From the NCBI GenBank assembly GCA_029717555.1, contig JAMDHS010000133.1, positions 1 to 38,648 of the forward strand: DNA of 38,648 bases. The letters run 5' to 3'. Below, in pieces: positions 53 through 38,648 of the stretch. This DNA comes from Peribolospora baueri (lineage: Eukaryota). The position numbers were made by a program, and so were the translations under genes. Numbering within the stretch: the stretch's first letter is position 1; each line of letters starts with the position of its first letter. Below the pieces are notes generated by a model. The model was not told the DNA's origin, did no database searches, and worked only from the letters and a program-made list of their open reading frames with translations.

Positions 53-3000
53 GGCGGCGATCGAGGATGACTATGCTCGGAGATTGGCCAAGCTCGCCAA
101 GCAATCGCTAGCAAAGGATGAGTTTGGGTATGTGGAGCAACCTTTTTCTAATGGATACGGACGTCGCGTTGTTCTGTGTCGGTCATGCTGATCCGCTTCA
201 GTCGTCCTCCCCAGCTCGCTTCGAAACTCCCTGGACACCGTCCGCGTTGAGACCGATGCGACGTCGCGGGCACACATGGAACTTGCCAGTCAAATCCGTC
301 GCGATTTGGAAGGCGCAGTCAACGAGTTTGTGGCCAAGACGGGCTCCAAGAGGAAAGCGGTGAGTTTCCCTCTTTTCCAGCGCCTCACTTCCAACCTTTG
401 CGCGCGGGGGCCGATTTTCGTCGCTCCGGTGGCAATGTCCTCGCTTCCTCAGGATCAAGTAACCATCGAGAAATTGTTCAGAAACAAGCAGATGCAGGAG
501 CAGTATGTGAACAAGGTGAGTCCGCCTTTATATATCCACAACCGCCCAGGCATCATCGTGCCCTTAGTCTTCGTCCATACTCGGTGTGCAGGCGAAGGAA
601 AAGTACGAGCAGGATTGCATCAAGATCAACAGCTACACCGCACAGACCAACCTTGTCCAAGGCAAGGATCTCGACAAGGTGAGCCGGATACCTCGTCCAG
701 ATTGCACTGCTCGATGTCTTGGATCGCAAGCTCAGTACACAAGAGCTTTTCTACATTTCCCTTACGAACAGGTGTCCGCCAAGCTGGATAAAGCGCAAGC
801 TACCGTGACGAGCAACGAGCGGGACTATCAGATGTTTGTGCGGGCGTTGAAGGAGACGACGAACCGGTGGAATCTGGAATGGAAGGCGTTCCTTGACGTG
901 AGTCGGCGCCATTCCGAGAGGTGATCCGAGGCGCTTTTCTTCTTTCAAGCGACATGGGCGCTGACTCCGGTATGACTTTTTGTTTGTTTCTGTTAGCAAT
1001 GTCAAGACTTCGAAGAAGAACGTGTCGAATTCATGCGCAGCATCCTCTTTAACTATGCCAATATACTCTCCGCAGTATGCGTCAAGGACGACGAGGTGAG
1101 TCGACCTTGTCAAGTCCTCCTCTGCTAGTAGTCCCATGTCCTCAATTCAGTCCGCACTTTCCCTCACTGTGACGTTTGCTACACCCGATGGGGACATAAC
1201 AGAGCTGCGAACGAATTCGCGTAGTTATAGAACAGGGCGACACGGAAAGGGACATCGTTCTTTTCATCCACCAGAATGGGACGGGCGCGAAAATACCGGG
1301 TGAGCAGCGGTAGATTACCCTGAAGGGCGCACGGGTGAAATGTCGCCGAGCTTACTGTATTGCGCTGTTCAACCCAATTCAGATCCTCCTCGCTTTGTCG
1401 ACCTCGCCAATGGCCAGTCCGTTCCGTCTAAGCCGACCCATACGATCGCCAATTTCCAACGGAGCACCACACGACAGCCACCCCCTCCACCTCCCGACCT
1501 GCCCTCCTATGACGGGCCGCCGCCACCAGAACGGCCCAAGTCCACGGGTTCTACGTTCCAAAGGGCAGACCCTGACCTTACTTCGCGATCGCAGCCGCAA
1601 GGGACAGGGGAGGACAGAGCTACCGGCGACGCTCCAGGCCCCATTGCAACGTCTCGTCCGCCACCTGGTGGAGGGCCTCCGCCAGGTATGCCTGGCGCTC
1701 AAGGCTTGCCAGGTATGCTGCGGTCGGCTTCTCCTAGTTCCGCTCCACCGGTCCATCCGCCTCCTGGAGGAGCAGCCGTACCGGGCCCACCTCCGTCTAC
1801 TTCTTCGGCTCACTTTACGGCACCTTCCGTCCACCCGCCCTCCGGTGCGGTCGGCCTGCCAGGAATGGCTCGCTCCCCATCTCCGGCTCCTCCACCTCCC
1901 AACGACGACCCGATTGCCAAGGCGCTCAGCGTCCTCAAATCGCAGAACGGCAGCATCAGGAGCACGGCTTCTCGGAATAGCGTTCTGACAACCTTGGCCT
2001 CAGCCGGATCTGCTGCGTCTACGATCGCGTCGAGAGGGCAACCTTTAGAGGGTTATCAGCGAGCACCGTCGCCGTCGGTCTCTGCACCGCCACAGCAATT
2101 CTCAGCTCCGCCGTCGTCTTTCTCCGTCCCGTCACCATTGTCCTCTGCTCCGCCGCGGTCCACCTCGCCACAGCCAAGTGCGGTCATGATGAGGCCACCG
2201 CCTCGTTCAACCAGTCCTGTACCAGTGGAAGAGGTGGTCATCAATTACCAACAGAGCTTGCCTGGCGAGAGAAAGAGCCCGAGTCTCAGTCGACAGAACT
2301 CGATGGCCTCCACTTTCCGAGGCCAGCCAGAGTACCCACCTGCGCAAGGCATCCCGCAGCAAGAGCGAGGCAGGCCCGTATCTGGCTTTGCCGGCGTAGG
2401 GGCCAGAGGCAGGAGCCCGAGTCCACAGCCTTTCCAGACGAGCACCCTCCAGTCACCAGCACAGGTGCAACCTCCACAGAGGGCCACGTCGCCTTTGGGC
2501 ATCCAGCTCGACGCCACAGGCAGCGTAACTCATGATCAAATGGCGGAGGAGTACATGCGACGTCAACAGTCCCAGCAAGCCCAACAACAGGGGCAGGTCC
2601 ATCCGCAGGTGCACGCTCCTCAGCCTCAACAGCCCATGGCCCAGACGACGCCCTCGCAGCAAAGGCATCCGAGCTACAGCCAGCAGCCGACGTCTCCGAT
2701 GTACTGGCATTCGCAGCAACTCTCGCACGCGTCCGTGTACAGCCAACCGCCTCAGCCTCAGCCGATGCCTTCATATCAGCAGCCGCCTCAACCACTGCCT
2801 TCCTATCAGCAGCCGCCCCAGCCAATACCTTCATATCAACAGCCGCCTCAGCCAACACCGTCGTACCAGCAGCCACCTCAGCCAACGCCGTCATATCAAC
2901 AGCCGCCTCAGCGATCTCCGTCATATCAGCAGCCGCCTCAGCCATCGCCGTCATATCAGCAACCATCCCAGCCGATGGCTTCATATCAGCAGTCATCCCA

Positions 3001-7251: not shown

Positions 7252-9051
7252 CTACTCGCCGAAAGGGAACTTCTGCCCTACCCAACCCTCGGTGAGGGTC
7301 CACAACTTGCGAGCGGACTCCTACAAGGCAGGCGAAGGACATCACCGAGGCGGGACGGTGGGGCAAGAGCGACGGTGAGCGCTTGCCGAGCATAGCACAC
7401 GAGTCTAAGAGCGACTCACCTTGTCCCTCGCATAAGGGGCGGCGACATCGTTGGCAATCTTTCCATCGGCGAGATAGCTGCCGGATTGATCTGGGGATAA
7501 GAAGGGAAGAGGGAGGACAGAGATGAGCGAGTGCGGTCGGTCCATCGGACGGCGACGAGCCCAAATGGGACGGCACGTACCCTTGATTGTCTCGTCAAAG
7601 GCTGCCGCGAGGACGCTGGATGTGGACGGAAAGGTTGGTAGACGGACGGGAAAGATGTCAGACGCATGTCCCCACCCGCGACGTCGGTCGCACTCACTTG
7701 ACGGCAGCCTGCGTTCGGGTCATGAAAGGGATCTGGTAACCACCGCGAATGTGGGCCACAGTGATCCTTTCGCCATTCGGCCCAAAATAGCCTGCGAGCG
7801 ATGGCGACGTGAGCGGTGCCGACCACTGCGTCGGGCATGATCCGAGGTCGCTCACCTTCCTTGATCATGTGCTCGGTCGATAGGCTCCGGTTGAAGTTGG
7901 TGTAGGTCACTTTGGAAGCGGGGAAAGGGGATGAGTGAGGGTGAGCGAGGATCAAAGATAGGCGAAGAGACAGGCGGTGCGCTCACGTCCGGGATGAGGA
8001 GCGAAAACGAGGATGCTGTCCTCGTTTAGTCGGTCGGCGAGTTCCAAAGAGGACAACATGACGGCCGTCTTGGTTGAGCCGTAAGCGACCCAGGTATCGT
8101 AGGGCTCCTTCTCGAATTGGGGATCGTCGAACCGGAACGGGCTGGCGTAGTGGCCCGAGCTGGCCACGTTGACGATGCGCGGGAGGGGGCCTCGGATGGC
8201 CTTGGCCGCCTTGGCCGTCTCGCGGAGCTTGGGCAACACGAGGTTGGTGAAGAGCCAGGGCCCGATGTAGTTGACGGCCAGCTGCGCCTCGAGCCCAGTC
8301 GAGACGGTCTCGCGGAATTCGGTCACGTTGCCGGCGTTGTTAATCAGAACCTGGGAGGGCGGGGGAAGGGAAAACCAGAGAGGCAGAGGTAGGAAGGAAA
8401 GAGAGGATGGCCTTTGATCAGTCCAGCTCCGTTCGACCTGTTTATCATATGCGTCCGAGGCCGAGCCCTTGTCCTCCCTTCCGTCCTGTCCGCTCACGTC
8501 GACGTGGCCGGGAAGGGCTAGGACCTCGTCGGCGGCCTTGCGGATGGAGTCGAAGGAGGAAAGGTCAAAGGCGAGCGGGACGAGGTCGACGTCTGGGGCT
8601 TCGCGACGGATGTTCTGGATCGACTTGTTGGCGCTGCGGGGAGGACGGGAGGATCATGGGGCGCACCGGACAAAGGCAGCGACGGGGAAACGAGGGGTCA
8701 GACATGGATTGAGCACGACGTCAGGCAGGGGTTAGCCCCGGCGGGCGATGAGCGAGAGCGACGAGGAACCCCCGCGCGACACCCACTTCTCCAACGTCCG
8801 GCCGTGGACTACGATCCGCTTCGCGTCGTTGACGGCGATGAGCCTGGCGATCTCGGCGCCGATGCCGCCGGGGGAAGCGCCGGTGACGATGACTGGCGGG
8901 GAGAGGGAGAAGGAGGAAGCGGGGTGGGGTATCAGAACCGTCGCCGCTGGTCCGCCGTCGCCCAAGGTGCGCTGGCCTCTCTCTCACCGCTCTTGCCCTT
9001 AATGCTCGGAGCGAGGTCAGCGATGACCGTGGCTGGGTCGACGGCGGACAT
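7252..9051 (-). CDS. Short-chain dehydrogenase/reductase (retinol-dehydrogenase-like classical SDR), multi-exon
   Basis: The spliced product reads MSAVDPATVIADLAPSIKGKSVIVTGASPGGIG (Rossmann), FDLSSFDSIR, VLINNAG, RIVNVASSGH, catalytic YGSTK, and C-terminal SGSYLADG...ESARKLWTLTEGWVGQKFPFGE*. Introns are GT..AG and no disabling lesion was seen. Confidence 0.9.
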
Positions 9052-9661: not shown

Positions 9662-12600
9662 TCATCTACAGATGTCCGAACGGAACCATCGTCGGGCAGC
9701 GGCGAACAAGGCGGGAGAACGGAGGATGGAGTAATGCGACACGTCGTCCACCACTTCGACCTGACAAGACGGCAAGGTAGCCGCGAGTAGCCGAGCCTCT
9801 GCCTCCCCGCCGTTAAAGCTGCGCGACGCCAGGACGAGGAGGACCGGCGACGAGACTCGGAGCAAAGACAGCACCACATCCCTATCACCCTCGTGAGCCG
9901 CATCAAGGACGAAAGAGGACAGGGCCCGCATGTGCGACCGGAATCGAGAGGCCCACGCCTTGGCTACCGGTAGCGAGACACCGTCGGCGGTCAGAGCGGA
10001 GGCCAGCGCTCCAGCGGAGACATCATCGAAGAACGGCGGCGGGTGGCCGTCGCCACCGCCCTTCCCCGCCTCAGAAGCCTCTGCGCGCATCGCTTCGAGG
10101 ACCGGCTGACCCAGCGCAAGCAGGTCGCCGTCGCGCGCCCGTCGCGCACCGTCTAGGAACGAGGGGCTAGCCAGATAGATCGGCGACTGATCCACGAGCA
10201 GCAGCCGACACTCTCGTCCCTCGGCCTCGAGTAACCTCGCCACTCTCAAAGCGACGATGGCGCCGAAGGAAAAGCCGGCGAGCAGGTACGGTCCACGAGA
10301 TTGCCGTCTCACCAGCTCTGACCGGCTCGCTTCGGCCAGTGCATCCAAACTCTCGCACTCCTCTTCCGCCTTCGACACCACGACGGCACCGCCGAGAGCA
10401 GAGGCGAGGGCGGACAGTTGGTGCGTGCCCCCGCCGGCCCCGGGAAAGAGGAACACTCTCGTGGCACCGCCCCCTTGATCCTCCGACTGCTCGTCCCCAA
10501 CCGCCGTGGCGCGCCCCTGCTCCACGTCGTACTTCTCTCTCAGCGACTTCAGAGTGGTGGAAAAGAGGACCTGCATCTGCGGCACCTCCATACCCAGCTC
10601 TCTGCGCAACTCGGTGCTCAGCCGCACGCCTGTGAGCGAGTCCAGGCCGTAGTTGGCCAAAGCCAGATCTGGCTCGAGCTTGGACGGGTCAACGTCGAGG
10701 ACACGTGCGACGATCGCGTCCGTCGGCGGCATGTCTTCAAGCTCGTCCTTAGACCCAGAGCGCTTCCGGCCGTCGACCAGATGGCCCATCGTCCGGGACC
10801 GGGCTGACTCTGCCACCGTCTTGATGTCCACGTGCGGGACGTAGACGCCGACCTTTCCGTTCCGCAGGAGCAGCAGCGCTTGCTCGACATGTTGCAGGTA
10901 GTCTTCAGCTTTGACGCCCCACTTTTGACCGAGCTGCAGCGCCGCCTTGGTTCCGACGTCGTCGAGCGTGCGTCGGTAAATGCCGCCGTCGAGCAGCGGC
11001 ACGACCGCCATGGCCACGGCGTTGGGAAGCGGCGCCAGCAGCTCCTCGAGGCCGGCGTTGGCGATGGTGTACGTAGCCTGGCCTGCAGAGCCCGCGATGG
11101 TGGCCAACGACGAGGCGCCGATCACAAAGTCGAGCGTTTCGGAACGAACTATCGACAGCAATCTACCAAGCGCATCCACCTTGACGCCCCACGGCACGTC
11201 AAAGTCGTTCTGCGTCCGCGTCGTGATCATGCCGTCCGTCAACTGGACTGGAAGGTACACCAGACCGGCCAGACGCCGCGTCCTCATCAGATCATGCACG
11301 AGGGCGCCTGACTTTTCAGCGTCCGCCGCGTCCACGGCGGCGATTCGGAGCTCGACGCCGGCCCGACTCTCGATGTGCTCGATAATGCCCCGTTCGCGGT
11401 GCCACCCGGGACGATCGAGGGTGTCGCGCCCCGAACGCGAGGTCAGACAGATGTGTCGAGCGCCTCGGTCGACGAACCAGCGGGCCATGCGGACGCCCAG
11501 CCCTCCGCACCCGCCTACGATCAGATACCAAGCCTCTGCATCGAGCTGCAGGCTGTCTGGCGCCACGCCAACGGCTCGACAGGTAGACGAGACGGCAAAA
11601 GGCGTATCGGACGGGTGGGCTTCGATAAGTTCGGAAGCCGGAATGGCGAAACCGTCGTCATCGGGAGTGTCTCCGGGCGGCCCGTGCGCAAGAATCTCCT
11701 TCAAGCCTCGGAGCACCCTCCTTATGCGCGGATGCAGCAGCTCGATGTCGCGACTGAGTTCTACCGCTTCGACGCCGGGGAAGCGCTGGGAACCGAACAT
11801 GACCGCTACCTTTGATGTGGGCCGGGCCGTGTACGCTTCCGGCAGAGCTGAGGTGGCGACCAGCAGGTCGAACCGGCGAGAGCGCAGATGCCAGAGACGA
11901 CGGAGGACTTGTTCAGGTCCGCCACAGCAGGGCTCGTCGATCACCGTCACCACGTCGATGTCCAGTGCCGAGGCGGCCGAGGCGAAAGCGTCTGCCATGA
12001 CGCGGCCGCCGACGAACAAGACCGACGACGGAGGGTCCAGCACTGAAAAGCCGGAGGCGTCGATAGCATACAGAGCGAACACGAGGCCGAGCAGATAGCG
12101 TTGGCCGGTGACGGCACCGGCTTCAACGCGGACGATGAGGTCTTCATTCAGCGCGACTTTGCTGGCCAAAAGGGGCGAAAAGCCGATCAAGGTCGCTCCC
12201 TGCCCGCTCTGCCCGTGCACGAGGCAGGCACCGGAGGAGATAAAGATGCCGCCATCGACGGTGACCGCGACCTTGCCCGGATCGAGAGCGGGCGCGTACG
12301 CAGCTTCGAGCTTGATGGCGTCCGCTCCGGTGTCTGAGCGCGAGTTGACCAGTCGCCATTCTGGCAGCGGGGACATCTTCTCAGCAGCGTGCTCCGGCCG
12401 CAGCAAGCGAACCAAGCGACAGACCTGCATAGTGCCGTCACCCACGAAACGAACCTCAACCTCGTGGTCAGGCACCGACGCGACTCGCTTTAGCAGGTCC
12501 TCACGAGCCGGCTGTGTCAAGACAGAATCGAACAAGACGACCCGGACCCCAATGTCGAGGTCCACTCGGAGAGAACGACCGAAGGCCAGGGCGCCCGCCG

Positions 12601-15600
12601 AGTCACCACACACTGTCAATTGGGCGTCCGGGTTCTGTGCCAGCTCAGTCAGCTCGGCGACCAACTTGGCCTCCTGACCTCGTTGGTGCCAGAGAACGCG
12701 GGACGTGCGATCGTCGCCGCCGTACCTCCCATTGGCGCCGTCTACGGGATCAGTCCAAGCTGGGTCGAGACGCGCCTCAAAGACCATACGGCGGAGATGG
12801 GTGCCGGCCTCGTCTCGCATGCCGACAAAGCGGTCGAAACCGTGCCGTTGAAAGTGGGACTGCCACTGTTCGCAGGTCTGAAGGGGGTGGGAACGCGAAT
12901 CCGCGAAGCCCCACCAATCTTTAAGAGTGCCGAACAGAAAATTGAGGAAGGCGGTGCCGGGTGCCCGGGCGCGCTCGAGCCCGCCATCCGCCTCAACGAC
13001 GAGGACAAACCCGCCGGGAACGAGGAGAGACCGCGTGGCCGAGATGGCCGCGTCGAGATTCTTGGCGACATGCATCGTGTCGGCCATGACGACGATGTCG
13101 AACGACCGCGGCAGCACGCCCGACTGAGGCCTGTCGGCGTTGAGATCGAACAGCGCCGTCGACACGCCGCCGTGCTCGATCGTTTCTGCCGCGGTGCGGG
13201 CGAGGTGGGCGGACACGTCCGTGATCACCCACTCCATTTCCAGGTCTGGCTGCTCCACGAGGACTTCTGACCATGCGCGAGAGAGTAGCCGTGTGAGTTG
13301 ACCAGTGCCCGCCCCGAGTTCGGCCACCTTGATAGCACGCTTGCCGGCCGCGGCGAGGAAGCGGACGGTCTGGGCGAAGAGGTTGGCGGCGTTGTGGAAG
13401 GACTGGTCTGCGCTGGCCTCGGACTTGTAGTAGTGGGTCATGACGTCGTCGCGGAAGAGCGCCTCGACGGCCGCTCGGTCATCGATCAAGACCTTGTTCC
13501 AGATGCTCTCGAGCCTACGGGCGATCTCGTAGTGATGTGGATGACGGTCTTTCAACGGCGCGAGCTGCGCCAGAGACGAACCCTGCTTATCCACGGAAAC
13601 CCGTTGGGCCAACGAGGACAGCCAGGCGTAGTGCCTCTTACGGTCGATGAGGTCGCTCGGCTGGGATCCAGAGGAGATGATCCGACGAGCCATGGCGGAG
13701 GCCCATGCGTCCAGGGCTTTGTAAGTCGGGAGCATCGAGTCCACGGGCATCGGAGCTCGTGCGGATATCGCGGCCCGCTCGAGGTCGAAGGGTCCGACGT
13801 TGGCCCACGGCTGCCAAATCTCGGTGATGGCGCCAACGTGGGGGTTGGCCGCGTTGGAGAGACGCTGAAGCCTGAAGCCGTCCACAGTGAAGAGGACTAC
13901 ACCGCGGAGGTCAGTGGCGACCACGTTGAACTCCATGCGATCGGGCTCGAGCAGCGTACGGGTGACGTGGGACAAGAAGGACGGCTCGGAAGGCCGCCCG
14001 TACAGGCGGACGCGCCTGGCAAAAGAGGGCAGGAAATAGTCGAGCATGTACCCTCCTAGATCGGAGCAATAAGGGAAGACCAGCGCGGCGGCGGCTTGCC
14101 AAGCGGCGTCGAGGATGGCGGGATGAAGGCGGTACGACCCATAGCGATCGAGATCACCCACGTTGCCGCGGACAACGCCGAGGGCCTCCGAGTAATCCTC
14201 CCGGAAATGGGCCACCTCCACGCGACAGAACTTTGCGCCAAAATCGAACCACTTGCCAAACTTGCTGGTCGTTTGGCCGAACCCGTAGAACTCGTCCCGT
14301 TCGACCCGCAACGGGCAACGGGAGCGGACGGTTTCGAGGTCGACGGGAGGCGGTCTAGCTGAAGGCGCTCCGCCGACTAGAGTGCCGTCTGCGACGAGGC
14401 GGTCGAACGTGACGTTACCCTATGGGAAAAAGCAACGCCAAGAAGGAAGTCAGGCGGGCGCCAACAAAGAAGGAAAAGACCATGCCGGGCTCGGCTCACC
14501 ATTCGCGTCGCTTCGTCCATGCCATCCCGCTTGGCGAGCTCGGTCGAGGTCCGCACCGTGTAGGTCGGCCCGTCGCGCACGACTTGGACGGTCATCGCAA
14601 TGTCCTTGGGCGTACTCAGCGCGCTGTAGAAATTAGCGTTCTGGATCTCTTGTACACCAAACTCAAAGCCCATCTCGACCAGCGCTGAAGCGGGCACGAT
14701 GGCCTGGCCATCGATGATGTGGTCCGCGAGGTCGGGATGGGTCATCTGCGAGAGCCGGAGGCGAGGATGACAGAGTGGCTTCCACGCCTCTACGTGCTTG
14801 GAAAGGTAGCCCGGGCCTTGAAGTATTCTACGCGCTTTGCGGTATGGATAGGCGACGACCGAGCGGCCGAAGGTAGGCGGGGACGCCGGGCACGGGTCCC
14901 GCATGATCAGGTCGAAGTGCACATCATCGACACCCTCCATCCAAAGGTCTCCAATGGCCTGGAGCAATGCCACTCCTTCCGCCTTGGCGCACTCGTCGGC
15001 GTCGCGCCAGTCGGCCGCTCTCCGAGAGACGGTGCACACGTGTGCCGTCCCTAGCGTCTGTGCGACGTACGGCGCGAGGGCGGGGTGGGCGGACAGCTCG
15101 ACAAAGACCGTCGATCCGGGACCCGCGCGGCTGGCGACGGTCTGGATGGCGTCCGAGAACAGGACCGGCTTTCTAGCGTTGTCCCACATGTCGTCCGGCG
15201 TTGCGAACGAGCCCGACGGAACGAATCGGCCCGTGACGGTCGAAACGAACGGCTTTCGATGGACGGCCTTGCGCTCGGACAAGCCCTCGAAGACGGCATG
15301 GACGCCGGACACGTAAGTCTCGCGACACCGGTCCACGAGCTTCGAGTGAATGGGTGTGCGGGTGCGCAGCAGGCCCGCGGAGTAGCCCCCAGCTTTGGCC
15401 TCGTCGACAAACGCAGAGAGAGGAGCTGCAGCACCAGAGACGAGATAGGCGTCCGGGCCGTTGAATCCGGCGATCTCCAACTCTTGCTGGCCCTCGAGGA
15501 GCGGCAGGAGCTGAGCCAGGGGAGCGTGGAAGTAGGCCATGGAGCCGGAGCCTTCGATCTCTTTGAAAGCTCGGCCACGGGCCACGGCGAGCCGGACGAC

Positions 15601-18245
15601 CGTCTCGCGCGAGCAAGCGCCGGTGGCGTAGAGCAAAGCAGTCTCTCCGGCGCTGTGGCCGACGAGAAGATCCGGTCTGATGCCGAACGAGACGAGGAGG
15701 TCGAAGAGGGCCATCTGAAGCACGGCGATGGCGGCGAGGGTAACGTCGATCGACCAAGCAAATGTGTCCGCCGCTGCTCCCGGCGATGGGGTCGCGAAGA
15801 GTCCATAGTCTCGGACGAGGGAGACGCCCATCTCCTCGCTGTAAGCGGCGTCGCCTCGCAAAACCGCTTCGCGAAAGACATCGTACTTGGCGAATAGGCA
15901 TCTTCCCATGCTGCAGGAGCAGAAGGAAGGAGAGAGAGTCAGCTTCTGCATTAGCAAGGGTGAAGGCGGCGCAAGCGACTCACTGGAAATGCTGAGGTCC
16001 CTGACCGGAAAAGAGAAAGACAATCGTCGGAGTGACGTCCGGCCGCGCCCTGGGCTCGGCGAAGCGGAGGTTCTGCCTTTGAGCGTCAAATCCGGTGGCG
16101 AAAGAGCGGAACGGCATGGCGCGAGCGGTTCGAGCCATGGCCAAGAGGGGGACGTCTTCGGAGGTCTCTTTCCACTCGTCTGCGATCGCCAGGAGACTCC
16201 GGTGCGTCAACGCACCGACGCAGAACAGGCTTGGCGTCCGCGAGGAGGACATGCGGCGCACACATCCCGCGCCGTTACCGTTCGCGAGCAGGGCACGATG
16301 TGCGCTAGGAGCGGCTTCGAGCACGACGTGGGCGTTTGCCCCACCGAAGCCGCTGCTGGCGACCGAGACGAGCGGCAGTGGCTTGCCTGCCGTATCGACC
16401 TCGGCAACCTCAGTGCAGACGCGAAGATCGTACTTTGCCCAATCGACGGCCGAGGTCGGAGTGGCAAAGTTGATGTTGGGGAGGAGCTGTCGGGAGGAGA
16501 GAACGTAGCACATCTTGACAATGGAGACGAGGCCCGCCGCCAGCTCGGTGTGTCTACGGAAGGCCGAGTTGGTCAGTTGCGGGGCGAGGCACGCGTGGTG
16601 GTGTCACGGAGGAACTCACCCCACGTTGGACTTGACCGAGCCGACCGACAGCGGTCGTCGCCGTCGGTGCTTCTGGAAAGCGAGCTCGCCGATCGCCGCG
16701 AGTTCTGCAAACGGGGAAGATGAGCAGGTGATGTGGAGGATCAGTCGACACATCAGATCTGCTTACCTGTGCTATCGCCCACCTTGGTGCCGGTACCGTG
16801 AAGCTCGACGAAATCAACGTCTTCGAGGTCACGCGCGGCCGCTCGGTAAGCTCGTGTGATGACGTCTTGCTGAGCGGGACGGCTCGGGGAGACAATGGAT
16901 AGCCCGCGGCCGTTCGAGTTGATGGCCGAGCCGAGGATCTGCAGGGCCGATGAGAAGGAAGGAAGAAGCGAATTGAAAGGAAGACAATGGAACGGAATTG
17001 GGGGTGGAGGCTCACGTTGGCGTAGATGCGGTCGCCGTCAGCGACCGCCTTTGAGTATGGTTTAAGGATGAGCGCTACGGCTGCCTCGGACCGCACGTAA
17101 CTGGAGTGAAGGACCGCGGTCGCAGGAGGGAGGTATGAGATGAGCGAAGAGGCCTCTCAAGAAGAACCGGGAGCGTTACTTGCCCGTCTGCGGCTTGATC
17201 AAACGGGGAACAGGTGCTGGTTGGAGAAAGGACGCCGAGCTTGGAGAAGCCGATCCAAGACTCGAGACTGCGAGGGACACGCGAGAAGGGAGACGGGCGG
17301 TGAGGTTAGACAGAGAGGATGATCGAGCTTCTTTGAACAGTCAACCGGGACAGCGGACACCGCACCCACTCTCCGATCCAGTTGGCGGCGGCGACGACGG
17401 CCTGGCAGCACTCCCCTGCAAGGAGGCCGCGGACGGCCAGATGAAGGCCGACCAGGCCCGCGGAGCAGGCGGTATCGACGGGGAAGCTGGGGCCTTTGAG
17501 ATCGAATATGAAGGAGATACGGTTAGCGAGCATGGTCGATGCGATGCCGGATTCGTAGTACTCGTCCGCGGCGTAGAGGGCGTCGTCCCAATTCTCTGCC
17601 CCCGCCGGCGGGTTGGCGGCGCCGACATAAACGCCGGTGTCGGAGCCACGGTAGTCGACGCCGGCGTCGCGGAGTGCGTCGAAAACGGTGGAGATGAGGA
17701 GGAACTGGACGGGCGTCATCTTCTGGAACTCGCGCGCGTTGATGCCAAACTCGGTGTGGTCGAACTCTTCCGTGCCGGAGAGAAAGCCGCCGGAGTCGGG
17801 CAGGACCTGTCCTTGGCCCTTTCCGTGCCACCTGTGTTCATGCGGTGGAAGAAGAAGAGGAGGACGGACGAGCGGGGTAGGCGAGAGGTTGGGGAGGGGT
17901 GGGGGAGGGGCGTCACATGCGTCAGTGCACGGACTCGTGGCCAGTGGCCGTTCAGACGAAGGAAGCTGCTCACGCATCGATGTTGAACCGTTCCTTCGGG
18001 ATCCGGGTGATTGACGACCCTGGTGACGCCGACCGAGAGGAGAACACCGTGAGACAGAGCACGACGCTCCCGAAGGGGGGAGAGGGCCTGGAGCTGGCCG
18101 GTGCCTGCTCACCTTTGTTCCTCAGGAATTGCTCAAAGCTGACCTTGTCGAGGTTGGGGCCGTTGCCGCCGTCGGGCAGATGGCAGGCGAGGCCGACGAT
18201 CGAGATGGCCTCCTTGCCAGCATAGCTGAGGTCGTCCAGAGACAT
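9662..18245 (-). CDS. Highly reducing iterative type I polyketide synthase, KS-AT-DH-cMT-ER0(degenerate)-KR-ACP-TE
   Basis: KS: VDTACSAG, ELHGTGT, KSNVGHTE (C-H-H triad, last motif spanning an intron). AT: FSGQGPQ, GHSAGE, TPIHS. DH: LADHIIDGQAIVP and LHPAILDA. MT: ELGAGTG and DTMHVA. KR: GGCGGLG and GQATYTIAN. ACP: YGLDSL. TE: FLFPGAGG, GFSFG, SHYSIL. The 5' half is intron-rich and the 3' exon is ~4.75 kb. Confidence 0.95.
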
Positions 18246-21589: not shown

Positions 21590-22219
21590 TTCGAAGAGCC
21601 TGCGTGTAGTTGAACGAAAAGGAAGAGGGAGCTTTGGCGAGGCGGGGCGATGAAGACGTCCAGGTATTTAATCGCAGACCTGCCGGCGGGCATTCATCAA
21701 TTTCGATAGAAGTTGTAGTGAAAGGGATGTTCAATATCGAGAAACCTCGTCTTTAGTGCGCACACTCTTGCAGCCGCCTAAGCTACTAGGCGGAAGAAAA
21801 AGTACCCCGGTGTCACCTTGGCCGTTCCGTTCCAACTCGGGACGATCGCTCAAACGTCCATATGACCTTGACCTTTGGAGTCGGATGCAAACCTAAGCCT
21901 TCTCAATCATCTCACGCCACATCGCTACCCTCCGACTGCCAACCTGCAGTTGCGTCCGCTCCAAGTGGGCAACGCTGCAGGTGTGAGGACTCAGCCTCGC
22001 TTTCCGTCAAGTCGACCATGCCCCTTGGCCCGCCGGCAATCCGGATGGGGTCGTCTGAACAGCGCTTTCCCGGCGCGCTGCACATAGCCCTTCTGTTCGG
22101 ACCGGCAGCCAGGCTCCCTCCCTTCCTCTCTCTTCCACCATTCCTTTCGTCTCCCTCGTCGCACTCAGTTCGACACACACTCTCTCTGCCATCGCCATTA
22201 TCACAGCACGTGCTCGACC

Positions 22220-23140
22220 ATGACCGTTGCCCCGAAGACGAGGGCGGCCCCCGGGCAGTCGTCGTCCAAGCTGTCCTGGCTGTACATGGCCTCCCCCGTG
22301 CTCTTCCTGCTGCCGTACTGCCTTCTTGAGCTGACCCGGTACTGGACTTTTTCGGACGAGGAGAAGGAGGCCTTCCATAGGTCCTTCGACGATCTGCCCG
22401 CTTTGACCACGCTGAGGGAAGCGGTGAGCTCGCAGCGGCTACTACTCGTGCGCTCAGAGAAGCCAGCTGACCCCCGACGACCCGTCCGGTATGTCTCTGC
22501 CCCCTCTTCCCTCCTACAGAACGGGCACACCCCGATGGAAAAGTATGACGCCCGTCCGCTCATCTCGCACCACATGCACTTTGCTCCTGGTGTGCTCTGG
22601 TCCATCCTCATGCCGCTCCAGTTCACCTCGCGCGTTCGCGCACGTTGGCCAGCTCTCCACCGCGCCTCAGGCTATGTCTTCTTCTCCTCCTCGCTCTCCA
22701 TCTCGCTCTCCGCTCTCTATTTCAACTTGTCCGGCATCCTCTACTCCCACCCGAACCGTCTGCATATTGCCTGGGGCTTTGTGCCGACCGTGTCGATGCA
22801 GAACTTTGTCATGAACCTCGTCTTCCTCGGCACCGTGCCCCTCGCCGTGCAGGCAGCCAAGGAGCGTCGATTCGGAGACCACTACTGCTGGATCGTTCGG
22901 CACACCGGCATGGGCGTCGCCGCTGCGTTTCAGCGTCCCCTCATCATCGCCGGCAGTCTTTTTGGCGACCGGTTCAGGGACTGGATCGACGTGCCCGTCG
23001 GTCCGGACGCCTACGCGCTCGAGAGAGACTGGTTCGCCTTCACCGTCTTCGCCAGCCTTCTCCTCGCCGTCGTCACGGCCGAGATCCTCGTGGCGCGCCA
23101 CAGGCGAGGGCGGCGGCCTGCGAAGGAGCGGTTGTCGTGA
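22220..23140 (+). CDS. Intronless multi-pass membrane protein, DUF2306-like
   Basis: 306-aa ORF with several hydrophobic segments. The motif H..PG.LW..L.PLQF...VR.RWPALHR.SGY.F and a later H..W..RH segment match my recollection of the DUF2306 family. Confidence 0.75.
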   Translation: MTVAPKTRAAPGQSSSKLSWLYMASPVLFLLPYCLLELTRYWTFSDEEKEAFHRSFDDLPALTTLREAVSSQRLLLVRSEKPADPRRPVRYVSAPSSLLQNGHTPMEKYDARPLISHHMHFAPGVLWSILMPLQFTSRVRARWPALHRASGYVFFSSSLSISLSALYFNLSGILYSHPNRLHIAWGFVPTVSMQNFVMNLVFLGTVPLAVQAAKERRFGDHYCWIVRHTGMGVAAAFQRPLIIAGSLFGDRFRDWIDVPVGPDAYALERDWFAFTVFASLLLAVVTAEILVARHRRGRRPAKERLS

Positions 23141-26141: not shown

Positions 26142-26167
26142 TTGGGGTTAGGGTTAGGGTCAGGGTT
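26142..26167 (+). repeat. Interstitial telomeric tract TTGGGG-TTAGGG-TTAGGG-TCAGGG-TT
   Basis: Directly visible. It has the same strand polarity as the terminal telomere and sits exactly where the Prp24-like coding sequence begins. Confidence 0.85.
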
Positions 26168-28453
26168 GCAACAGGCTATGGACGCCCAAGCAGCTTATGC
26201 TAGCCAATATGTTACCCAAGAGCCTCAGGATGTCACAAACCTTCGCTCAGAACCTCGTGCTCATAGGCTCAGACATAGAGGCGTTGCAAGGCTGGAACAT
26301 AGGAGCTGCGGCGCTGCACCGGTTCATGAACGTGTATATAAAGAGAGCCCGACAGGGCGTCACAGCTTTCCTCCCGAAGCTAAGAATACTTTTGTCACCG
26401 CTCAGGTTTCCTCCAGAGTTCCCCGTCCAGCATCAGCACCTCTGTCCCAGCCTTCGCCCCATCCTCTTTCCTGTCCTCGTCCCTGTCTCCGACTTGTTTG
26501 CTCCTTGCTTTGCGTCGACTTCCGGTGGACCTCCATTCCGTCCCTCGCTCGTGACCCGACCTGAGTAGGGAAGTCCTCCCTGTCACAGGACGAGCAAGAC
26601 ACTAGAGGCGAGGCGAAGGGCCAGAAGCGCAAGGCGGGAGATGACGAAAATATCGAGGTCGGCGCTGTCGATGATGGAGCTGGAGACGCTGTAGGTCACA
26701 AGCGCGCGAAGACAGGTACGTTCTTCTCTCATAATCCACCTCCTTGTGTCCTCGCCGCTCATCCTCTGATGTTTTCCACTCTTTGTCAAACAGAAGCAAA
26801 AGCTCCCGAACGTGATCGTTCGACAGTCTTTGTTGCCGGATTGCCTAAAAGGACGGATCAAGAAGAGCTGAGCAAGCTATTTCGAGATGTAAGGGCATCC
26901 TACATTTTTCCTGCCGTAACTACATCGATGCTGATCTTATGTCTCTCGTTCAGTGCGGGGACATCCGCGAGATCAAGGTTCACGACCAAGAGGACCAAAC
27001 GGTGGCCACCGTCGAGTTTCATAACCGCAACGACGTCCCCACAGCCCTTACCAAGGACAAAATGGTTGTTAACAGGGCTCAGATTGAGGTTCACCGTGGC
27101 TCGGACAGCACCCTCTTTATCACCAATTTCCCTGAAGACTGGGACGATAAGGAGCTTCGGTCGAGGTTCGAAAAGGTACGGAAGAATCCATGTGGTGCCG
27201 GAGGAGTTTTTCAACGCTCATTTTTGTCCTTGACTTTCAGTATGGCGTCCTCTTCGACACGCGGTGGCCAAGCAAAAAGTTTAAGAATTCACGCCGTTTT
27301 GCTTATCTTCGGTTTAACTCGCCGGTGAGTCCCATTAAGCGTTTTCTTGTCCGTGACGAAGAGTGGCTGATATGATCTGCTTCGACACTCAGACTGCATC
27401 CAAGCTTGCTTTGGAACTTGATGGCGTCGAGGTGGCTCCAGGGCGCTCCCTCATCGTGCGGATATCGGACCCGGAAAGGAAGCAACAGCGTTCGGATGCC
27501 AAGTTAGACGAACGAGAGCTGTTCGTCCAGGGCTTGAGCCGGTTTGTAAAAAAGGAGGATCTGGAAAAGCTGTTCGGTAAAGTGAGTTACGGATTGAACG
27601 TGGAGCAGTACCCTAGGTGTTTGCGGGCTTGTTCCAATGCGTGGACAGACGCAATGCTGAAAAACGTCTGGAATCACAGTATGGCAAGGTCAAGGACGTG
27701 CGTGTAGCACTGAACGCGGACGAGACATGCAAGGGATTCGCATGGGTGGACTTTGAGGATGAGGTGGGTATTACGCATTTCTGACGTTTTCAAGCTCTCA
27801 TTTTAGGCTGACCTCTTCTCCCGCCTTGGGACGCCAGAACGAAGCACAGGTCGCCATGCGTGAGTTGCACAATACTCAACTCAAGAAACGTATAATGTCC
27901 GTCATGGTCACGGCACCGTATGCGAAAGCAGCAAAGGCACAGAAAGCGGAAGGAGGATCGGCAGGGTCTGGCCAGAGCTCCCGCATGGACGCCCGAGGCA
28001 AGACGGCACTGGTGTCTGGTCTTCCCGCTGAGGCGCAGGAGGCGAAGCTACAACAGGTTGTGGCAAAGGCGACCAGACTTAGGGCAGTAAAGACCATCGA
28101 GATGGGGAGCGCCGACGGAGGGAATGGCCCGAAGCAAGGCGAAGCCCGTGTCGTCTTTGAAAATGCGGCAGTGAGTTTCTAGGCACCTGAAGGCCATGTT
28201 TCGTTCTGCCTACAGGGTTTTTCTCATGAGTGGTACATTTGCCTTGTTGATACACCCGCAGGACTTTGGCAAACTTCTCTTGCTCTCAAGCATCGCCTAC
28301 GACGACAATGTCACCCTCACCGTCGCTCCGTACGAATTGGTGGTTGCTGGGAAGAAACCGGGGGGACAAGGGTTTGCACCTCGCAGCGTTACCAATGGCG
28401 GCCGAGGCAGGGGCCGAGGCAGAGGCGGGATTGGTTTCCGTGGCCACACTTGA
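26168..28453 (+). pseudogene. prp24: 5'-truncated Prp24/SART3-like multi-RRM splicing factor, interrupted by a solo LTR
   Basis: Exons 26168-26715 (minus the LTR), 26794-26888, 26954-27175, 27241-27324, 27393-27581, 27680-27763, 27838-28170 and 28262-28453 join in frame. They read ERDRSTVFVAGLP...LFRDCGDIREIK...ALTKDK...STLFITNFPE...YGVLFDTRWPSKKFKNSRRFAY...ISDPERKQQRSDA...RELFVQGL...CKGFAWVDF...GRGRGRGGIGF. The N-terminal HAT region and the C-terminal LSm-interaction motif are absent. Confidence 0.85.
26231..26585 (+). mobile_element. Solo LTR (355 bp) with 5-bp target-site duplication
   Basis: Ends are TG...CA and are flanked by CAGGA (26226-26230 and 26586-26590). There is an internal TATATAAA at ~26335. 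Removing the LTR and one TSD restores the reading frame EPQD-EQDTRGE. It is homologous to 4467-4635. Confidence 0.92.
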
Positions 28454-34440: not shown

Positions 34441-37178
34441 GTTCGTGTTCAAAACCTTTTACAACCCCATCTGGGATGGAGTCGATTTGCGTCCCGTCTG
34501 GGACCTTTACCTCTCCCAATGGGTTGATCTCGGGTTCGTCCCTCAGGGCACTCGGATCATCAATTGTAAAAGGAAGACACGTAGCCTCGGTGACCTTTTG
34601 AACGCGTCAAACAAGAGATCTATCCAGGGAGAGTCGCGTTAAACGCGTGCAGTTGGATTACGACCCTAATCCTAATGAACTAGGCACGCGACCTACCGCA
34701 GGTACGTCACCTGACCAATCAGGTGACACGGCTCCCGCGTCTATCCCGACGTGACGTGACCCGATATTTCCACGATGAAATTTTTTCGCGACCGCCACAA
34801 GGGAGAGAGCTGATCGTTGCTACCTGACGAGCCCTCGGGCGAAACAGCAAAAGCTTTCTGTCACAGCTTGCTCTTTCTTCTCGACGGCTTGGTTTTTTGG
34901 TCCAGCTACTTCATGGCCACCCCCAAGTTGACATCCAAAAGCCAACCCCCAGCCCTCTCCCACCCCTTTCCACCCCTCCGGTGAAAAATGACCCACCCCA
35001 CCCCCGCCACCCAACGCCGCAATAAACGTCTCGCAGTCGACCCCTTAAGGGAGGAAGACCTGGTGAACAGCCTAGCTGTATCCCAGTTAGAGACACCCCT
35101 CTCCTTCCTTGAAACCTACAAGGAGCACGTTGCTGTCTACACCAGCAACGCGTCGAGGGCCTTTCGCGCAGAGGCTGGCGTGGCCGAGCTGGAAACAGCA
35201 AAAGCCACTGGGGTTTACCCCCCAGCGATCGCCAACGCAGTCAAACTGCCTCCTTTTCAAGTTTCAGACTTTGCTCGAGCCCAAATAAGGGAAGACATCG
35301 TTACTGGAACCTCTGAAAGACATCGTTACTGGAACCTCTGAAATGGAGCAAGCGGCTCAGACTTGCCAAACTGCTCTTCTCAACCAACTCATTTGGGTCA
35401 GACAAAGGGAGCTCGAGCTCCTCACTCGTCTCCAAAAGGAAGAGAGAGTAGTACCGCAGAGTAGTACCGCAGCTGGCCCGTAGCCTTCGCGAGAAAGCGG
35501 CCTCCTTAACCGCTATGGCTAAAGTTCTCCCAGGCGTCTATGAACCCCATATCAGGACTCTCTGCGGGCGCTTCCGTAGCTCTCTAGATCAAATCCGCGT
35601 GAACTCCGCTTCCCGAGTCTCAGCGGCCTCTGATCGCAAAAAAGAGAAAAAGGAGGCCTTCCTACGCAGTCAACATGATGCTATCAATACTCATGACTCA
35701 ACGACTGTACAGGAAATGGTCAACGAGGCAGTGGAGAGGCGACTGCGCAGCAGTACCCTCCCTACCCCAGGACCTTCTAGAGCCACTACTAGTCGGCCAT
35801 CACTGCGTGTACCCAAACCCTCAGGACCTTCTAGGTTATCCAGGGACAAAAGGGACACAACAAAGCAGCAGAAGAAGAGCTCCTACGGCCAACGCGCCAA
35901 GAAGAAACGGCAGGACCCTAAAAAGTCATCCTCTTGGTATGTAGGCCCTCACTTTAACGTGAGAAAAATGGCTACATATCCTGACATCTTCTTTCGCGCT
36001 ACCCCCGCAGAACGCGCAAAGTTCGTATACCGGCAGTCGTCCCCTCTGTTTATTGACACCTTGTCAAAAACAATGAGGTACACAACATTGCCGGTAAACC
36101 TCTGTCACTCCAGGTCAAACGGACCCTAACCTTCAATATGAAGTTTATTCCGAAACCTAGAATGTCAGATAGCGAATGGACAACCTCTATTGAGGATTTC
36201 GAACGACGCGCTCGCTGGAGATGGTTTTTCCGTGATAAACCAGATCTTGAACCCTTCGTCCCAAGGCTCCACATTCCCAGCTAGACCCCCGCTCTTAAAC
36301 AAAGTCACCGTTTTGAGCACAGCCTCGCTGTTGGTCGTTCTGCGTTAATGACAGCGATTCACACCGCTGCCAGGAATCGTCCTCCGACGGCCCCAAACGT
36401 CGGTAAAAGGACTTGGACTGCCCTTCGTGAATTCCTATCAGATGAAGACACCTAGTGCTCCCCACTGATAAGAATCTCGGAATGGCCATCGTCTCCAAGA
36501 CATGGTACTTCAGCGAAGCGCAAAGGCAACTGAGCGATCGGTCCGTGTATGCCATCGCAAACCCTAACCCAAGGGCTTGGCAAGCTACCCTCCGACGCCT
36601 CACAGAGCTTTACCGGTCTTCCCTTTCCTCCCGAGAAAGGAAGTGGTTACTCTCCTCCGAGGACCTCTTGACCGGAAATGATCTACGCCTCCCGCAGTTC
36701 AAGCTGATTCCCAAGATCCATAAAAATCCCATCGCCGGACGCCCCATCGTCCCCAGATTTGACGCCTTTTGGTCAAGGGCATCTACATGGATCGACTATA
36801 AGCTGCAACCGCTTCTGCCGAGCTACCCCTGGATCCTCCGCGATTCCAAGGAATTTGTTAAAGGGATCATAAAGCTATCCGGACAAATTTCGCCGACACA
36901 GCGGCTCTGCCTTGTATCTGGCGACGTTGAAGCAATATATCCCTCCATTCCCCCGGAAGGGTTGCGAACACTACGCTCCGTCATCTCCAAGTCTAGGTAC
37001 GATCAAGGCATAAAGGATCTCATCCTTTCCTTGCTCACCCAAGTCCTCTGGAACAACTACTTCACTTCCTCTGGGGTCACCTACAAGCATCCGAGGAACA
37101 GCCATGGGGACGAGCTGCGCACCAGCGTACGCTAATCTCTTCATGGCTTGGCACGAGCAACAGCTCACCTCGGAGTGA
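34441..37178 (+). mobile_element. Decayed Penelope-like retroelement (Coprina/Athena-type) in partial-tandem arrangement, 3'-truncated
   Basis: A long ORF can be reconstructed from 34988 across several frameshifts. It shows the PLE motifs LTFNMKFIP, DFERRARWRWFF, LPTDKNLG, IPKIHK..IAGRPIV, SGDVEAIYPSIP (RT motif A) and GTAMGTSCAPAYANLFM (motif B'), and breaks before the YxDD motif. The upstream segment 34441-34642 (FVFKTFYNPIW...KRKTRSLGDLL) resembles a PLE ORF C-terminus, followed by a UTR with a hammerhead core. Confidence 0.88.
34817..34870 (+). ncRNA. Type I hammerhead ribozyme-like motif in the PLE UTR (stem I degenerate)
   Basis: CTGACGA (34824-30), stem II GCC-CTCG-GGC, GAAAC (34841-45), stem III ACAG/CTGT around the loop CAAAAGCTTT (contains the palindrome AAAGCTTT), and a GTC cleavage triplet ending at 34862. 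Stem I GCTAC/ACAGC has two mismatches next to the core. Confidence 0.65.
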
Positions 37179-37180
37179 AA

Positions 37181-37731
37181 ATGGGAGGAGATGATCTGTG
37201 CCTTCTAGCGATCGAGAGGCCGACTTCGGGCTCAAGTTCATCCTGGAGAGTGTGCATCGACGAGTTCGAGGAGAGGGACGGTCTGCTTTTTGCGAAGCGC
37301 TTCCGAAACATTGAGGCACACGAGAAGGGGGAGGTCCGGACGACGACCGGACTGTCTTGCCGCACTGTCTGGCCGAAGAGATCTCCCGCAAAGAGGCCGA
37401 CTACGCGGCGCGGACCAGCCCCTTGCTGATCGACGTCGTGCTTCCGCGCTTCATGGAACGGGACGAGTGGATCCAACTCAGCCACCAGCAAGGCTACGAC
37501 GTGGACTCGCACCGGGTGTGGAACAATGCCCAGTCTTTCCAGCGCGTCTCCAAGCCGGTCGAACTGGCAAACGGTGGGGAGGACATGGCCTTCTACCATT
37601 ATGGCTCCGACAACGAATATCGCAAGCTGCTGACAGCCGTTCGTGGTGATACTCGTCTCAACAGTCTCGCTTACGTCGGCGCGGCGGTGCAGTGGGTTGC
37701 ACGCACCCGCAGAATGTCGAATCGAACATGA
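37181..37731 (+). pseudogene. 3' fragment of an unidentified intronless protein-coding gene (one frameshift at ~37355)
   Basis: Protein-like translation ...WRVCIDEFEERDGLLFAKRFRNI...[shift]...LLIDVVLPRFMERDEW...MAFYHYGSDNEYRKLL...*. It abuts the broken RT. The family was not recognised. Confidence 0.4.
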
Positions 37732-37871
37732 TCTCATTTGTCAAGTCATAGTTAGTCATTGGAAACGATTGTCCCAGTCAATTAGGTAGAAACCGTATCG
37801 AGTCCCCTTCTCTCTCCAAGATATGTGTGTGGTCACGTGTAGAGAACTGTGGTTCGTAGTCCTAGACTGGG

Positions 37872-37880
37872 TATATATAT
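37872..37880 (+). promoter_or_regulatory. TATA-like element upstream of the terminal P-loop ORF
   Basis: TATATATAT is followed by a CT-rich tract and lies ~130 nt before the ATG at 38007, as is typical of fungal core promoters. Confidence 0.5.
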
Positions 37881-38006
37881 GACCCTTCGCCTCCTCTTCT
37901 TCCAGTTCCCTTCTTTGCCCTTTTCTTATCGCCCATCACCAACTCAGGCACACCTCTCAAGGCAAAGATCCACCTCCCCAGGCACACCGCCTAAGGCACA
38001 GCAAAG

Positions 38007-38648
38007 ATGCCCACGCAGCAGACGCCACACAAGCTCTTCATCCAGATGTCTGGTGCACCAGGTTCTGGGAAGAGCACGATAGCAAGACTTCTCGGACGCT
38101 CGATCGGCGGAGTGGTCATCGATCATGACGTCCTCCGATCCAGTCTTCTCGATTCCAACATTTCGTTCGACCAGGCGGCAAAACATTCTTACCAGCTTCA
38201 ATGGACGCTAGCCCAAGATGTCATGAAGCAAGGCCACAGCGTCATCATCGACAGCACCTGCAACTTCCCGGAGGTTCTTGACCAAGGGTCCGCATGTGCC
38301 AAACAACACGGCCACGCCTATTGGTATGTCGAGTGCAAGGTCCAAGACGTCGACCTGCTGGACCAACGGCTGCGCACTCGAGCTCCGATGACGAGCCAGC
38401 GAACTGGTGTCGACTGTCCTCCTGCTGCTGCTGCAGCACGTGGCGCTCGTGACGGCGAAGACTCTCGCGCTCTCTTCAAGAAGTGGATTGAGCACCCGTG
38501 CCGTCCAGAGGACAACGTTGTGATGGTTAGGGTTAGGGTTAGGGTTAGGGTTAGGGTTAGGGTTAGGGTTAGGGTTAGGGTTAGGGTTAGGGTTAGGGTT
38601 AGGGTTAGGGTTAGGGTTAGGGTTAGGGTTAGGGTTAGGGTTAGGGTT
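38007..38648 (+). CDS. AAA_33-type P-loop nucleotide/small-molecule kinase, C-terminally truncated and fused in frame to telomeric repeats (no stop codon)
   Basis: ATG at 38007, with an in-frame TAA upstream at 37992. Reads MPTQQTPHKLFIQMSGAPGSGKSTIARLLG (Walker A)...VIDHDVLRS...GHSVIIDSTCNF (Walker B)...YVECKV...LDQRLRTR (lid)...WIEHPCRPEDNVVM, then (VR)20V. There are 173 codons before the repeat. The ORF track omits it because it has no stop. Confidence 0.88.
   Translation, partial: MPTQQTPHKLFIQMSGAPGSGKSTIARLLGRSIGGVVIDHDVLRSSLLDSNISFDQAAKHSYQLQWTLAQDVMKQGHSVIIDSTCNFPEVLDQGSACAKQHGHAYWYVECKVQDVDLLDQRLRTRAPMTSQRTGVDCPPAAAAARGARDGEDSRALFKKWIEHPCRPEDNVVMVRVRVRVRVRVRVRVRVRVRVRVRVRVRVRVRVRVRVRVRV
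38525..38648 (+). repeat. Telomere (TTAGGG)n, chromosome end
   Basis: 20 perfect TTAGGG units from 38527 plus partial flanking units, running to the end of the window. Confidence 0.97.

Follow-up and report, generated by a model that had tools for sequence, protein, structure and literature searches.

The closest described counterparts of the locus analysed here are chromosome ends at which telomere repeats stand inside genes, together with the peptides that telomeric RNA can encode. In Plasmodium falciparum 3D7, PMC5550746 reports telomere repeats inside a truncated var coding region at 4 of the 28 chromosome ends, and in Pyricularia oryzae, according to PMC7367193, 19 of 24 de novo telomeres arose from seeds of 1-4 nt and the rest did not. 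For TERRA, the telomeric RNA, Val-Arg (VR) and Gly-Leu (GL) are given as its two open frames, and a VR peptide has been reported in human cells by antibody (PMC9992779); the title of a further paper states that VR represses in vitro translation (PMC12663981). The initial annotation of the DNA considered here had named VR and GL as TERRA-encoded dipeptides, in agreement with the account in PMC9992779. Healing within genes is a known kind of event, and we take the junction described below to be a new and unusually tidy case of it.

The window is the whole stretch of DNA that was analysed, 38,648 nt long. Its final 780 bases contain a TATATATAT box with a CT-rich tract, an ATG, and a reading frame that stays open to the last base. 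The features that matter for the argument are, in order along the window:

about 9.6-18.2 kb, minus strand: a reducing polyketide synthase
36452 to 37174, plus strand: a retroelement fragment, truncated at its 3' side and comprising the N-terminal half of a reverse transcriptase (tblastn); multi-copy, and outside the kinase gene
37175 to 37870, no strand assigned: a unique spacer between the retroelement fragment and the kinase promoter, single-copy in sequencing runs X1 and X2 and on the same contig as the kinase
37871 to 38006, plus strand: the putative core promoter and 5' leader of the kinase (sequence, and BLASTN against L001, a locus in a relative)
38007 to 38522, plus strand: kinase codons 1-172, intronless, without the last ~21 codons, the stop codon and the 3' UTR (Pfam, homologue alignment)
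38523 to 38528, plus strand: the junction zone, in which AT at 38523-38524 is probably native (from an Ile or Met codon)
38525 to 38648, plus strand: the telomere tract at the end, (TTAGGG)20.7, its G-rich strand oriented 5' to 3' up to the last base

The open reading frame (38007 to 38648, plus strand) encodes 214 aa, is open at its 3' end, and meets no in-frame stop before the window ends; its kinase part comprises residues 1-172, counted from the ATG at 38007. Codon 173 (ATG, 38523-38525) is a hybrid whose third base opens the telomere repeat; the 41 codons after it are telomeric and read (VR)20 plus a final V. The perfect repeat, counted back from the window's final base, measures 124 nt and so begins at 38525, and Tandem Repeats Finder describes the tract at 38525-38648 with a period of 6, 20.7 copies and 100% matches. 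The three frames of the tract translate as G*, VR and LG, and the kinase frame is the VR frame. An ATG at 38007 opening a stop-less frame into the repeat, as first annotated, is correct to the base by both the ORF listing and the repeat count, and the accompanying claim of one Val-Arg, one Gly-Leu and one stop frame matches our translation of the tract. Because two of the three telomere frames are stop-free, the lack of a stop codon is expected rather than designed; for a coding break that faces a telomere, with two of three phases stop-free and one of three Val-Arg, the open frame is unremarkable. What exceeds chance is the telomere tract itself, not the open frame: compared with shuffled sequence, its 23 matches were reached in 0 of 100 shuffles.

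The coding sequence that runs into this tract is a recognizable kinase. Pfam assigns residues 13-129 to AAA_33 (PF13671; 55.2 bits against a cut-off of 27, E 1.2e-14) and residues 5-103 to Zeta_toxin (PF06414; 42.6 bits against a cut-off of 22.3), the latter match covering profile positions 12-122 of 199. A Walker A motif, GAPGSGKST, occupies residues 16-24, in which G16, G19, G21, K22, S23 and T24 are invariant in the family alignment, and every family-invariant residue is present in the 172 codons of the window's protein. A homologue search of a set of 5.8 billion proteins at E<=0.001 gave 452 relatives, and the best 120 of these, which we analysed, are all fungal or metagenomic, are 56-87% identical to the protein of the window, and for the most part have lengths of 190-200 aa; they are colinear with the window's protein, and the gene therefore has no intron. 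The names attached to homologues are generic (predicted kinase, ATP-binding protein, zeta toxin domain-containing protein). The closest full-length homologue among the best 120 (P0002) was modelled with AlphaFold from a 40-sequence alignment (mean pLDDT 82.3), and the model is a five-stranded P-loop kinase. Among solved structures, it is matched best by the putative kinase 2rhm (TM 0.67-0.71), followed by APS, adenylate and gluconate kinases; a direct sequence search of solved structures gives weak P-loop matches, the best with an E value of 0.016.

We find that this kinase gene is truncated near its C-terminus, because beyond window residue 172 at least 17 more residues (median 21) are present in 116 of the 120 best homologues. 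The alignment behind this count took in all 120 listed homologues with none dropped, and of the four exceptions three stop earlier, being short gene models, and one has 12 further residues. In the P0002 model the last strand spans residues 174-178 (VVIVD) and the last helix residues 183-195; V171 and V172 of the window correspond to the first two of the five strand residues, and the telomere-coded M-V-R occupies the place of I-V-D. Judged by this model, the break lies inside the last beta-strand, with the 13-residue C-terminal helix lost outright. The window's copy of the AAA_33 fold is incomplete, keeping two native residues of the last strand and none of the C-terminal helix. The initial annotation had placed the cut near the C-terminus, which the homologue extensions confirm, and had described the last beta-strand as seemingly missing; the latter needs correcting, since three of its five residues are lost but two are kept, the break falling within the strand of the P0002 model.

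The sequence distal to the break exists in the homologues and in L001 and is gone from the window. The L001 DNA carries the rest of the gene (ATT GTG GAC TCC...) where the window enters the repeat, and a contig from organism B (run X6) matches 38004-38511 and then continues for 185 further letters; the missing part is thus judged from homologues and the DNA of relatives, not from an intact allele of the same species. An intact, diverged paralogue of the kinase may exist elsewhere in the genome. An AlphaFold model of the 214-aa product has a strand at 171-175 and a VR tail with a pLDDT of ~30; its helix at 205-213 (pLDDT ~50) was rejected as an artefact of homologue C-termini aligned to the end of the VR tail, and we give this model no weight on stability.

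Relatives' DNA also bears on the exact point of breakage. A scan of metagenome contigs for relatives of the kinase gave four loci, L001-L004, with L001 the closest (87% identical in amino acids and 85.8% in nucleotides, the latter over 37871-38527). At the junction L001 reads GTT GTC ATT GTG GAC TCC and the window GTT GTG ATG GTT AGG; the aligned junction codons are ATT GTG in L001 and L003, GTT GTA in L002 and ATG GTG in L004, and the 120 homologues follow VV with I in 73 cases, V in 31, T in 5, M in 4, A in 2 and F in 2, and have a gap in 3. If the native sequence was ATT GTG, the break would lie after 38524 and leave no in-register seed, and if it was ATG GT, as in L004, a GGT-type seed would have primed telomerase. 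The GGTT at 38525-38528 is either wholly telomeric or in part a native seed, and these codons are compatible with a GG/GGT seed at the junction or with none. Seeded and seedless healing both have a precedent in P. oryzae.

We regard it as likely that the locus is a chromosome-healing scar, left by terminal breakage and subsequent telomere addition, with a stump that is dead or nearly silent. A terminal deletion, or progressive erosion of the end, would have reached the 3' part of a kinase gene in this Pezizomycotina fungus, and the gene that was hit would have been a conserved, intronless P-loop kinase of about 193 aa oriented towards the chromosome end. Telomerase would then have put TTAGGG repeats straight onto the broken coding sequence, with the loss of ~21 codons, the stop codon and the 3' end-formation signals, and the telomere would by chance have taken up the Val-Arg phase, which leaves no stop codon. 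The event would be evolutionarily recent, or at least without decay so far, and is apparently fixed in the sequenced culture; what remains is most likely a dead or nearly silent gene. The arrangement of the DNA is that of a healed end, with unique coding DNA up to 38524 and then a G-rich repeat running 5' to 3' to the end. The proposal of a cut gene healed by telomere addition, made in the initial annotation, is supported by the truncation and by a repeat that directly follows unique coding DNA and is oriented as at a true end. The tract at 38525-38648 is likely a true telomere, because its 20.7 repeats are perfect and correctly oriented and its length is like that of P. oryzae telomeres, which are described as 20-30 repeats long (PMC8381367).

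Upstream of the break the gene appears well preserved. The TATATATAT TATA box lies at 37872-37880, 135 nt 5' of the ATG, and the CT-rich tract at ~37883-37935. BLASTN homology to L001 begins at 37871 and extends across CT tract and leader as far as the ATG; both the TATA box and the CT tract are kept in L001, and similarity fades upstream of ~37850. To judge from sequence, the core promoter is intact and conserved with this relative, and it may be working at this position. The TATA/CT-rich promoter of the initial annotation is present in its sequence elements and conserved in L001, with a function that we infer. Over the 172 codons, the comparison of the window with L001 gives a dN of 0.067, a dS of 0.468 and a dN/dS of 0.14, and these codons contain no frameshifts and no stops. 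At columns at least 90% conserved, the window departs from the family once in 69 (A61S) against a family median of 2, and 96 of 121 family sequences depart at as many conserved columns or more. By these comparisons the cut was made recently, or else constraint on the stump persists, and an undecayed coding sequence behind an intact promoter is as compatible with a stump that is transcribed, or even of use, as with a silent one.

The first alternative to a dead or nearly silent stump is that it is expressed, the Pol II promoter driving a TERRA-like sense RNA with a coding 5' portion and the ATG at 38007 starting a kinase-(VR)n fusion with a tail that would lengthen and shorten with the telomere of this one chromosome end. 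On the present sequence this would seem improbable, even though TATA box, CT tract and leader are undamaged and shared with L001, the coding sequence is without decay, and the frame is open to the last base. Sequence and the L001 comparison give the promoter the orientation of TERRA transcription, in which the C-strand is the template, and if the promoter fires the 3' part of the RNA would for this reason be TERRA-like (orientation and template as described in PMC9992779). In the AlphaFold model of the product the last strand (E171-175) is made up by M-V-R, and folding of the core is thus conceivable, but the C-terminal helix is lost and the VR tail has a pLDDT of ~30. The native 3' end signals are gone, so that every transcript would be without a stop. 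Stop-less messages are cleared by non-stop decay, and ribosome-associated quality control disposes of the proteins made from them; the usual non-stop mRNAs come from premature polyadenylation or cleavage. A sense transcript of the stump, stop-less wherever its 3' end forms, would be a target of both pathways, and non-stop decay with Ltn1-type quality control would keep such products very low.

Two further points weigh against expression. The tail would be read from a G-quadruplex-prone RNA composed of two seldom-used codons, as 20 alternations of GUU and AGG, and in the 2366 codons of the window AGG accounts for 7% of Arg and GTT for 10% of Val. The ATG lies 518 bp from the telomere tract, and the stump, 0.5 kb from the type of tract that induces repressive chromatin in Neurospora, would be subject to silencing; there a tract of similar size, (TTAGGG)17, is described as sufficient for a large repressive H3K27me2/3 domain (PMC5752202). 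We expect little RNA and less protein from the stump. The fuller version of this alternative, in which the conserved promoter fires and a fraction of a capped, ATG-initiated mRNA ending in telomeric repeat escapes surveillance to give kinase-(VR)n with a tail length that reports telomere length, seems to us quite improbable.

Comparison of the predicted tail with known proteins adds little here. A protein search with residues 173-214 gave 173 matches at E<=10; among the best 120 of these none has a perfect VR run of at least 16 residues, the matches being degenerate VR-like repeats instead, and the search is uninformative on how common such junctions are. A narrow literature search found no description of an ATG-initiated frame reading into a telomere, which is weak evidence that no such description has been published.

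It is very unlikely that selection retains the truncated kinase as a working or newly functional protein, with termination achieved otherwise, for example by cryptic polyadenylation. The 172 codons do lack disabling mutations, with all family-invariant residues present and a single deviation in the 69 conserved columns, but a recent break accounts for the same data, and a cryptic poly(A) site would still leave no stop codon. The C-terminal strand and helix are, moreover, kept by 116 of the 120 homologues and so are normally needed. A recently healed, dead or nearly silent stump remains the preferred account of the gene.

The chromosome arm as a whole resembles the unstable subtelomeres typical of fungi. 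A 625-aa RVT_1/DUF8422 protein (P0122) is matched over its residues 143-363 at 36455-37123 with 32% identity (E 3e-20, tblastn), and the rest of P0122, including the catalytic half, was not found by tblastn. The summed contig depth of this retroelement fragment is 400-900, against about 117 for the kinase contig, and other copies of it in X1 and X2 diverge at 37172-37174; the spacer that follows, 37175-37870, is not alignable to L001. Pfam gave no match for the ORFs at 35452-37731. Two upstream ORFs have weak leads in the Protein Atlas, to rotifer clusters in which 12-14% of members carry DUF8422, and the recognition value there for the second of them is 1183. Farther inside the arm, a degenerate, telomere-like internal tract (26142-26167; 2 mismatches in 26 nt) is oriented as the terminal tract is and is located exactly where G+C drops from 0.63 to 0.54. 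It may mark an earlier chromosome end, for which the 'internalised vestigial telomeres' described in PMC8381367 offer a comparison.

The presence of such an internal tract on the same arm, and the fact that short-read contigs end in any shared repeat, raise the question of whether the terminal repeat is itself a long interstitial telomeric insertion, with more DNA, and perhaps the remainder of the gene, beyond it. We think there is very little chance of this. The terminal tract has 20.7 perfect repeats, against 2 mismatches in 26 nt for the internal one, and in orientation and length it matches a working fungal telomere. A weaker point in the same direction is that, among the X1 and X2 contigs listed, none joins the missing 3' part to the junction. 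A true chromosome end, healed within the kinase gene, remains the better reading.

Support for the junction comes from two sequencing runs, X1 and X2, both of which possibly represent the source sample of the window rather than an independent isolate. Each of the two contains every 31-mer sampled from 37700-38560. Logan contigs of 1409 nt (X1) and 1410 nt (X2), assembled independently of the window's own assembly, fit 37145-38514 with 0 differences, and each carries 39-40 extra letters on the telomere side of 38514. With 38515-38560 masked as repeat, these 39-40 letters are presumably telomeric, their number being the expected yield of a 31-mer graph entering a repeat common to chromosome ends. 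Because the X1 and X2 contigs match with 0 differences and extend telomere-ward, the junction is not an artefact of one assembler.

The depth of the kinase contig is 116.7 in X1 and 81.7 in X2, and that of neighbouring copy-specific contigs 131-145 and 91-103, respectively. This similarity means that the stump is single-copy and in essentially all nuclei, not subclonal; the junction region stands at full depth in both runs, which, as noted, may both be the source sample, and an identical intact copy of the kinase is absent from that sample. In a soil-metagenome run (X3), a single 202-nt contig matches 37954-38156 with 9 differences and stops short of the junction.

The contig evidence argues strongly against an assembly or library chimera, that is, a junction absent from the organism, which we consider exceedingly unlikely: telomere-like reads can be mis-joined at contig ends and both supporting runs are possibly the source sample, but X1 and X2 each give one unbranched contig with 0 differences at depths of ~117 and 82, all sampled 31-mers across 37700-38560 occur in both, and a rare chimeric molecule would fall short of full depth.

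Taken as a healed end, the locus is a textbook-clean junction that packs gene, promoter, a break in the last beta-strand and a full-length telomere into 780 bases, and it can serve to date and type the instability of chromosome ends in this fungus. Its wider appeal hinges entirely on expression. If the stump is transcribed, it is a natural construct in which a normal start codon leads ribosomes into UUAGGG repeats, and this would provide a fungal test both of the translation of telomeric RNA into VR and of the response of non-stop and stalling surveillance. If kinase-(VR)n is made, it would be a genetically tractable source of VR by canonical rather than RAN translation, and an equivalent construct is easily engineered. 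Such junctions should arise often; by our own estimate roughly one healed end in six gives one, assuming that half of the DNA is coding, that half of the genes point outward and that two of three phases are open.

Set beside the systems that resemble it, the locus shares with AAA_33/zeta-toxin-like kinases the Walker A motif, the five-stranded core and Pfam scores above the cut-offs, and differs from them in that the last strand and final helix, complete in those kinases, are incomplete and absent, respectively, in the window's copy. Non-stop mRNAs are without an in-frame stop, as any sense transcript of the window's kinase gene would be, given that its ORF (38007 to 38648) is 3'-open at the level of the DNA; unlike the usual ones, such a transcript would owe its missing stop to a permanent change in the genome, and, barring use of a cryptic poly(A) site, it would encode a Val-Arg and not a poly-Lys tail. 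The TERRA VR and GL proteins of Al-Turki and Griffith 2023 (PMC9992779) involve a (UUAGGG)n RNA and a Val-Arg frame, as predicted for the window. Their account, as available, proposes an AUG-less start (RAN translation) in mammalian cells, whereas in the window a canonical ATG and a folded domain would come before the repeat, and the tail is predicted to be at most ~41 residues long.

As to healing itself, the truncations of var, rif and other genes in Plasmodium falciparum show telomere healing within coding regions, as in the window; they belong to another organism with another repeat, and PMC5550746, in the portion available, describes them as pseudogenes and does not discuss the frame through the repeat. 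The nearest likeness is to the rDNA-telomere, MoTeR and AVR-Pita truncations of Pyricularia oryzae (PMC8381367, PMC7367193), which also carry TTAGGG repeats. As those sources describe the junctions, the repeats abut unique or coding DNA that is not subtelomeric, the tract has ~20 repeats, and there are zero to a few nt of possible seed, all as in the window. What sets the window apart from the Pyricularia oryzae cases is that the broken unit is a conserved single-copy kinase gene pointing outward, in which the start codon, the promoter and an open frame into the repeat survive.

The features on which the following paragraphs draw are, in window order:
7952-8653, minus strand, short-chain dehydrogenase piece
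about 9662-18121, minus strand, large reducing polyketide synthase (KS, AT, DH, methyltransferase, KR, ACP and thioesterase domains)
22088-23140, plus strand, DUF2306 membrane protein
26142-26167, plus strand, interstitial telomere-like tract of 26 nt, degenerate, with 2 mismatches against TTAGGG repeats
26849-27328 and neighbours, plus strand, RRM_1 RNA-recognition-motif pieces (E 8.7e-06)
35292-35341, plus strand, two identical tandem copies of a 25-nt unit, within the region associated with the retroelement
36452-37174, possibly starting near 34900, plus strand, fragment of a multi-copy retroelement with an RVT_1/DUF8422-like reverse transcriptase
37175-37870, unique 0.7-kb spacer between the retroelement fragment and the kinase promoter
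37315-37731, plus strand, open frame in the spacer (124-138 aa)

We find that G+C content falls from 0.63 to 0.54 exactly at the internal telomere-like tract, which is oriented like the telomere at the end of the window, and that this tract may be a former chromosome end, internalised on capture of the distal 12.4 kb. Just distal to it, the RRM_1 pieces are scattered across several frames at 26.5-28.2 kb and probably represent an intron-containing gene for an RNA-binding protein. The polyketide synthase, the short-chain dehydrogenase piece and the DUF2306 protein probably form a subtelomeric secondary-metabolite cluster. The window itself starts with a run of 27 T (6-32).

The reverse transcriptase of the retroelement fragment is 32% identical to P0122, a 625-aa RVT_1/DUF8422 protein, and lacks the YxDD half; a Protein Atlas look-up for the fragment gave a weak lead to rotifer clusters. 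Other genomic copies of the element diverge at 37172-37174. A Pfam search of the adjoining spacer and its open frame returned no match, the open frame has a low recognition value in the Protein Atlas, and no counterpart of the spacer was found beside the kinase gene of L001, the metagenome-contig locus that is the closest relative.

The metagenome-contig locus L004 carries its kinase homologue (1238-1839) divided between two frames, as ORFs 1238..1525 and 1423..1716, an arrangement that may reflect either a frameshifted copy or an intron-bearing gene. Among the best 120 of 452 relatives (P0002-P0121), this small intronless kinase shows unusually high conservation over distant Pezizomycotina, a pattern for which strong constraint and mobility are candidate causes, with identities to the window's kinase, among the matches listed and with organism names as given by the source records, of 80% in Tuber, 78% in Melanomma, 73-75% in Fusarium and 72-73% in Orbilia.
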